From Escherichia coli (GTDB taxonomy: Bacteria; Pseudomonadota; Gammaproteobacteria; Enterobacterales; Enterobacteriaceae), in the NCBI RefSeq assembly GCF_044324875.1, contig NZ_CP172185.1: a stretch of DNA of 64,000 bases; one strand, 5' to 3'. Positions within the stretch are counted from its first letter, which is position 1; the number at the start of each line of letters is the position of its first letter. The translations under genes and the position numbers were made by a program. Below the pieces are notes generated by a model, which was given only the letters and a program-made list of their open reading frames with translations, made no database searches and had not been told where the DNA came from. Shown one piece after another: positions 56,549 through 57,187 of the stretch.

Positions 56549-57187
56549 ATGAGTTTATTTGATAAAAAGCATCTGGTTTCCCCCGCCGATGCCCTGCCTG
56601 GACGTAACACCCCGATGCCCGTAGCCACACTGCATGCGGTCAACGGTCACTCAATGACCAATGTACCTGACGGAATGGAGATTGCCATTTTTGCGATGGG
56701 TTGTTTCTGGGGTGTGGAGCGTCTGTTCTGGCAGTTACCCGGCGTTTACAGCACCGCCGCAGGCTATACCGGCGGCTAAACGCCAAATCCGACTTATCGG
56801 GAAGTGTGCTCCGGTGATACTGGTCATGCCGAAGCGGTACGCATTGTTTACGATCCTTCCGTCATCAGCTATGAGCAGTTGCTACAGGTATTTTGGGAGA
56901 ATCACGATCCCGCCCAGGGAATGCGTCAGGGCAATGACCACGGCACGCAGTATCGTTCAGCGATTTATCCGCTGACCCCAGAACAGGATGCTGCTGCTCG
57001 CGCCAGTCTGGAACGTTTTCAGGCGGCGATGCTTGCCGCCGATGACGATCGTCGCATCACCACGGAAATTGCTAACGCCACACCGTTTTATTATGCCGAA
57101 GATGACCACCAGCAATATCTGCATAAAAACCCGTATGGTTACTGTGGAATTGGCGGAATTGGCGTCTGTCTGCCGCCGGAAGCATAG
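56549..57187 (+). pseudogene. msrA: Peptide methionine sulfoxide reductase A with in-frame TAA at codon 77
   Basis: Frame from ATG 56549 ([14 protein letters not shown]..) reads GGC GGC TAA ACG at 56771-56782, where E. coli MsrA (as I recall it) has GGYTPNPTY; downstream sequence remains in frame and MsrA-like to the normal stop at 57187. Confidence 0.75.

Follow-up and report, generated by a model that had tools for sequence, protein, structure and literature searches.

A nonsense codon at position 77 probably makes msrA a very recent, clone-private pseudogene in a natural Escherichia coli lineage

The window, a 64,000-nucleotide stretch of the Escherichia coli contig NZ_CP172185.1 (assembly GCF_044324875.1), carries msrA in its usual E. 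coli position, flanked by tamA and paeA (ytfL), where reference genomes annotate the gene. Translated on the forward strand, positions 56549–57187 give a single frame that reads as E. coli MsrA, with a sole internal stop at codon 77. The local reading is GGC GGC TAA ACG, and intact alleles have TAT (Tyr) at codon 77. The gene and its derivatives are laid out as follows:

56549–57187, + strand: msrA frame, now a pseudogene; the translation has 212 codons plus the terminal TAG and one internal stop
56777–56779, + strand: ochre TAA at msrA codon 77; the mutated base is 56779, ancestrally T and now A
56549–56779, + strand: 76-residue N-terminal fragment, from the translation the only product expected; contains GCFWG
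56804–57187, + strand: residual in-frame ORF of 127 aa from the ORF list, with a GTG start at codon 86; probably untranslated

The preliminary description of this DNA had reported an in-frame ochre at msrA codon 77, produced by a change from TAT to TAA, in a gene otherwise intact and in frame. We confirm its coordinates, the number of the codon and the base change; beyond the stop the frame is open, the same as in intact alleles, with no secondary lesions.

With Tyr77 restored, the protein matches the NCBIfam model TIGR00401 (msrA) over domain residues 44–199 at 240.6 bits, above the curated cut-off of 108.1, and is assigned to the MsrA family (TIGR00401 / PF01625 PMSR). All 212 residues align with the solved E. 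coli structure PDB 2gt3, with one substitution, R169H (about 99.5% identity and an E-value of about 1e-149 for PDB 2gt3/1ff3). The single-frame MsrA translation is not due to a chance reading frame. The GCFWG motif with the nucleophilic cysteine occupies residues 51–55, upstream of the stop; the C-terminal cysteines, residues 199 and 207 of the same frame, are encoded downstream of it. In E. coli MsrA these C-terminal cysteines are the recycling cysteines. Judged from its sequence, the gene descends from msrA but would no longer encode a functional MsrA. A scan for promoters and terminators around msrA returned none above shuffled expectation. Within 56762–56782, msrA codons 72–74 and 76–78 each contain a copy of the 8-mer GGCTATAC, the two lying 12 bases apart; public assemblies include stop alleles at the Tyr codon of either copy (73 and 77).

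The two parts into which the stop divides the frame cover different portions of the family model. The 76-residue fragment spans positions 1–33 of the 153 in TIGR00401; its score of 42 bits falls short of the 108.1 cut-off, and a product of this length should be inactive. The 127-residue ORF spans positions 43–153 and holds the rest of the MsrA domain together with the C-terminal cysteines. A restart at its GTG, codon 86, was considered and rejected: the Shine–Dalgarno-like match there measures −4.3 kcal/mol, against −7.4 at the native start, and leaves no spacer before the GTG. Because this match is both weak and badly spaced, a restart at codon 86 is unlikely. For annotation, msrA should be marked as a pseudogene and not as two small proteins.

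To place the allele among finished genomes, we compared the 901 bases at 56400–57300 with complete E. coli genomes, of which 5,423 of 5,426 matched the query over at least 80% of its length. No complete genome matched at 100%, and the best 22 each had one mismatch. For these, Ecol_316 and 21 other complete genomes, the sole mismatch lies at 56779, A in the window versus T in the others. The block 55703–57351 is the same as in Ecol_316 except for this base. A 61-mer centred on the TAA had a perfect match in 0 of 5,394 complete E. coli genomes.

The TAA recurs in an assembly made from raw reads. In the Logan assembly of SRA run SRR31072984, contig 139 shares 100.000% identity with the window across 10,231 bases, TAA included, and with the wider flank 16,248 of 16,248 bases (47753–64000) match, again with the TAA. 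This run may come from the same isolate or even consist of the same reads as the window's assembly, in which case the agreement is independent in its assembler and not in its sequencing; the match thus rules out an error of the assembler more securely than one of sequencing. The exact 76-residue product is on record on 98 contigs, most of which end inside codon 77. Contigs and scaffolds that end exactly in this codon (L004–L006 and L009–L011) were set aside as an artefact of exact-length look-up, and control look-ups at Tyr73 and Tyr83 behaved alike. In a background with the exact TamB of the window, the split into 76 and 127 residues was found in SRR31072984 and at one further similar place.

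As a marker for the lineage, we used the window's exact 1,259-residue TamB, which occurs in 165 blocks of the collection and for which two loci were returned. TamA and PmbA were rejected as markers because each occurs too widely (in 74,028 and 13,258 blocks, respectively) and the loci that they brought up are only 96–98% identical to the window. Both TamB loci encode an intact 212-residue MsrA with TAT at codon 77. The one from GCA_044684685.1 (L034), which represents 22 further similar places, matches the window base for base across 10,180 bases, apart from a T at 56779, and the one from GCA_050232155.1 (L035) does so across 7,350 bases with the same exception. Since both carry T at 56779, the ancestral state is TAT. 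The change is also very recent, as the roughly 10 kb compared contain nothing else that differs and msrA shows no further lesion. The preliminary description had proposed a comparison with other isolates of the lineage and had allowed for either a recent loss-of-function mutation or an error of sequencing; the comparison with these two sisters, which differ from the window only by T at 56779, favours the former, and the repetition of the TAA in the SRR31072984 assembly makes the latter unlikely.

Across the sequences compared, the TAA is private to the window's clone. We consider it very likely that the allele is a real, clone-private and very recent loss-of-function pseudogene that arose by a spontaneous point mutation, with a predicted loss of MsrA activity. 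By its sequence it is an ordinary nonsense pseudogene of a well-known gene, nothing new in kind. Searching the literature for msrA pseudogenes of natural E. coli, we found no specific report.

The lineage itself appears to be commonly sampled without a finished genome, since 165 blocks of draft assemblies contain the exact TamB. Over 25 kb, the window shares 98.3–98.9% identity with the nearest complete E. coli genome; among 5,426 complete RefSeq E. coli genomes, the best identity to 39001–64000 is 98.9% over these 25 kb. Gene by gene, the window is 95–100% identical to strain GMF054, a pattern of low identity that, on the sequence comparison, is that of a recombinant mosaic rather than of decay. 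Genome decay of the Shigella type, which the low identity had suggested, was rejected: the window has a single IS element, and of its roughly 45 conserved genes msrA alone is broken, the 44 others checked being intact. One pseudogene per 64 kb is about the typical load of natural E. coli genomes.

Some further features lie near the start of the window. A 1,171-residue ORF at 1894–5409 (− strand) has only sub-threshold matches, to the anti-phage helicase-like families PLuB, ProA and Hhe and, at its C-terminus, to a NucT-like nuclease. It sits in a strain-specific island beside leuX, next to the tRNA-Leu(CAA) at 7361–7445. The leuX locus is a known integration hot spot. The ORF may be an uncharacterised defence gene; its neighbour, a 259-residue ORF at 6181–6960 (− strand), gave no NCBIfam match. 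At 8660–8790 the L-idonate cluster idnK-idnD-idnO-idnT-idnR, which in GMF054 lies between ahr and yjgR, is absent. Finally, a 326-residue ORF at 340–1320 (− strand) encodes an IS110-family transposase (NF033542, 255.8 bits).

Disrupted msrA alleles also occur elsewhere among public E. coli assemblies. Those that we found are listed here by locus:

L007: msrA codon 77 (Tyr) to TAA, on a different haplotype that differs from the window at 56629 and 56821
L002, L008: msrA codon 77 (Tyr) to TAG
L014, L015, L016, L020: msrA W61 to stop
L018: msrA L63 to stop
L017, L021–L023: msrA rearrangements
L032: msrA insertion

Like the window's allele, these are single lesions in an otherwise conserved gene. 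They stand on different haplotypes, with flanks about 2% divergent, and hence are independent events. The window's allele, unlike them, lies in a lineage background whose other members are intact. The W61 stop is seen in at least four assemblies with differing msrA alleles (98.4–99.1% identical to the reference), which represent either a small msrA-null clade or recurrent mutation. In the unrelated assembly ERZ27273522 (L032, 1–238), msrA is broken at its 3′ end by a sequence that shares 98.7% identity with positions 232–469 of the window; this match indicates that the same element family knocked out msrA elsewhere. The control look-ups at Tyr73 and Tyr83 contain real stop alleles as well (Y73 to TAG; Y83 to TAG and to TAA). 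A mutational hot spot at codon 77, suggested by three apparently independent stops there, was rejected on these grounds, as the Tyr73 and Tyr83 controls give similar counts with real TAG and TAA alleles.

Could the isolate in truth carry TAT, with the A at 56779 a consensus artefact? Three points speak for it: only one base differs, T stands at this position in every close relative retrieved whose flanks are intact, and the allele is absent from the complete E. coli genomes searched. Against this, the Logan pipeline, starting from the raw reads of SRR31072984, repeats the A within otherwise identical sequence, and the same division of the protein appears at one further place. Position 56779 lies outside any homopolymer, and the site has neither a GATC nor a CCWGG methylation motif. 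At normal depth, substitution errors in a short-read consensus are far rarer than true E. coli pseudogenes. We regard an artefact as very unlikely. A real stop could still leave the cell with functional MsrA if an ochre-suppressor tRNA encoded elsewhere, readthrough, or restart and complementation between fragments made good the loss. Nothing speaks for this directly; the otherwise undamaged frame would fit it, and is also expected of a very recent mutation. The sole tRNA of the window is an unaltered tRNA-Leu(CAA), and within these 64 kb there is no tRNA that reads UAA. The 44 genes around msrA contain no internal stops, and TAA terminates 34 of them, which argues that TAA is a normal stop in this genome and that a strong ochre suppressor would be costly here. 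Both release factors recognise UAA. The nearest in-frame start is the poorly placed GTG described above. Taken with these points, continued production of MsrA seems extremely improbable.

A further alternative accepts the knockout as real and holds that it was selected, loss of msrA being adaptive in some niche or during laboratory storage. Independent msrA lesions in other lineages speak for it, and so at first sight does the fact that the sole difference from the sister in 10,180 bases is a nonsense change, where 3.1% of the possible substitutions are nonsense; this figure is biased, as the window was chosen for containing a stop, and carries no weight. Nor do the look-ups single out codon 77: control stops were found in 109 blocks for Tyr73 and 81 for Tyr83, compared with 155 for codon 77, most of them partial sequences at contig ends. 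With very many E. coli assemblies in the collection, rare lesions are to be expected at every codon. The near-universal retention of msrA among complete genomes (5,423 of 5,426) points instead to purifying selection and argues that knockouts are transient. Selection for this particular loss is in our judgement highly improbable. The broader proposal that msrA loss has been selected repeatedly in a niche such as the strictly anaerobic gut or long-term storage, so that the stops at codons 61, 63, 73, 77 and 83 and the insertions would be parallel knockouts, is likewise very doubtful.

In the course of events that we propose, a spontaneous T-to-A transversion at 56779 turned Tyr77 (TAT) into ochre TAA, very recently and in one clone of a natural E. 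coli lineage that is otherwise msrA-intact. Translation would stop after residue 76, and the resulting fragment keeps the catalytic cysteine motif but is missing some four fifths of the catalytic domain, the C-terminal recycling cysteines among them. With the loss of this part, the cell would possess no cytoplasmic reductase for protein-bound methionine-S-sulfoxide. We would expect such cells to be viable and to tolerate peroxide, hypochlorite and reactive nitrogen stress less well.

Published work bears on these expectations. Reduction of protein-bound methionine sulfoxide has been shown for three enzymes only, MsrA, MsrB and the periplasmic MsrP (PMC7402097). MsrA is specific for the S form, and BisC reduces only free Met-S-SO (PMC7402097); given this specificity of MsrA, the clone should be without cytoplasmic repair of Met-S-SO in proteins. 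The preliminary description had supposed that the mutation would remove a major methionine sulfoxide repair enzyme, a claim consistent with the truncation point and with PMC7402097, the loss of activity itself being a prediction. In the passages of PMC6210949 that cite Moskovitz 1995 and St John 2001, E. coli msr mutants show impaired growth and survival after exposure to oxidants. The laboratory msrA nulls described there are viable and impaired after H2O2 or reactive nitrogen stress, and the same loss of activity would be expected here. Those nulls are engineered disruptions in K-12, whereas the window's allele arose by spontaneous point mutation in a natural lineage, and its phenotype is a prediction. 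Compared with the E. coli MsrA of known structure (PDB 1FF3, 2GT3), the gene is the same and lies in the same tamA-msrA-paeA position; in the window codon 77 is TAA, leaving residues 1–76 only.

The finding is of little importance beyond this strain. Within it, the clone and its sister isolates form a natural near-isogenic pair, with one difference in about 10 kb, that is usable for studying MsrA function in a wild background, and we predict that the clone is more sensitive than its sisters to peroxide, hypochlorite and reactive nitrogen stress.
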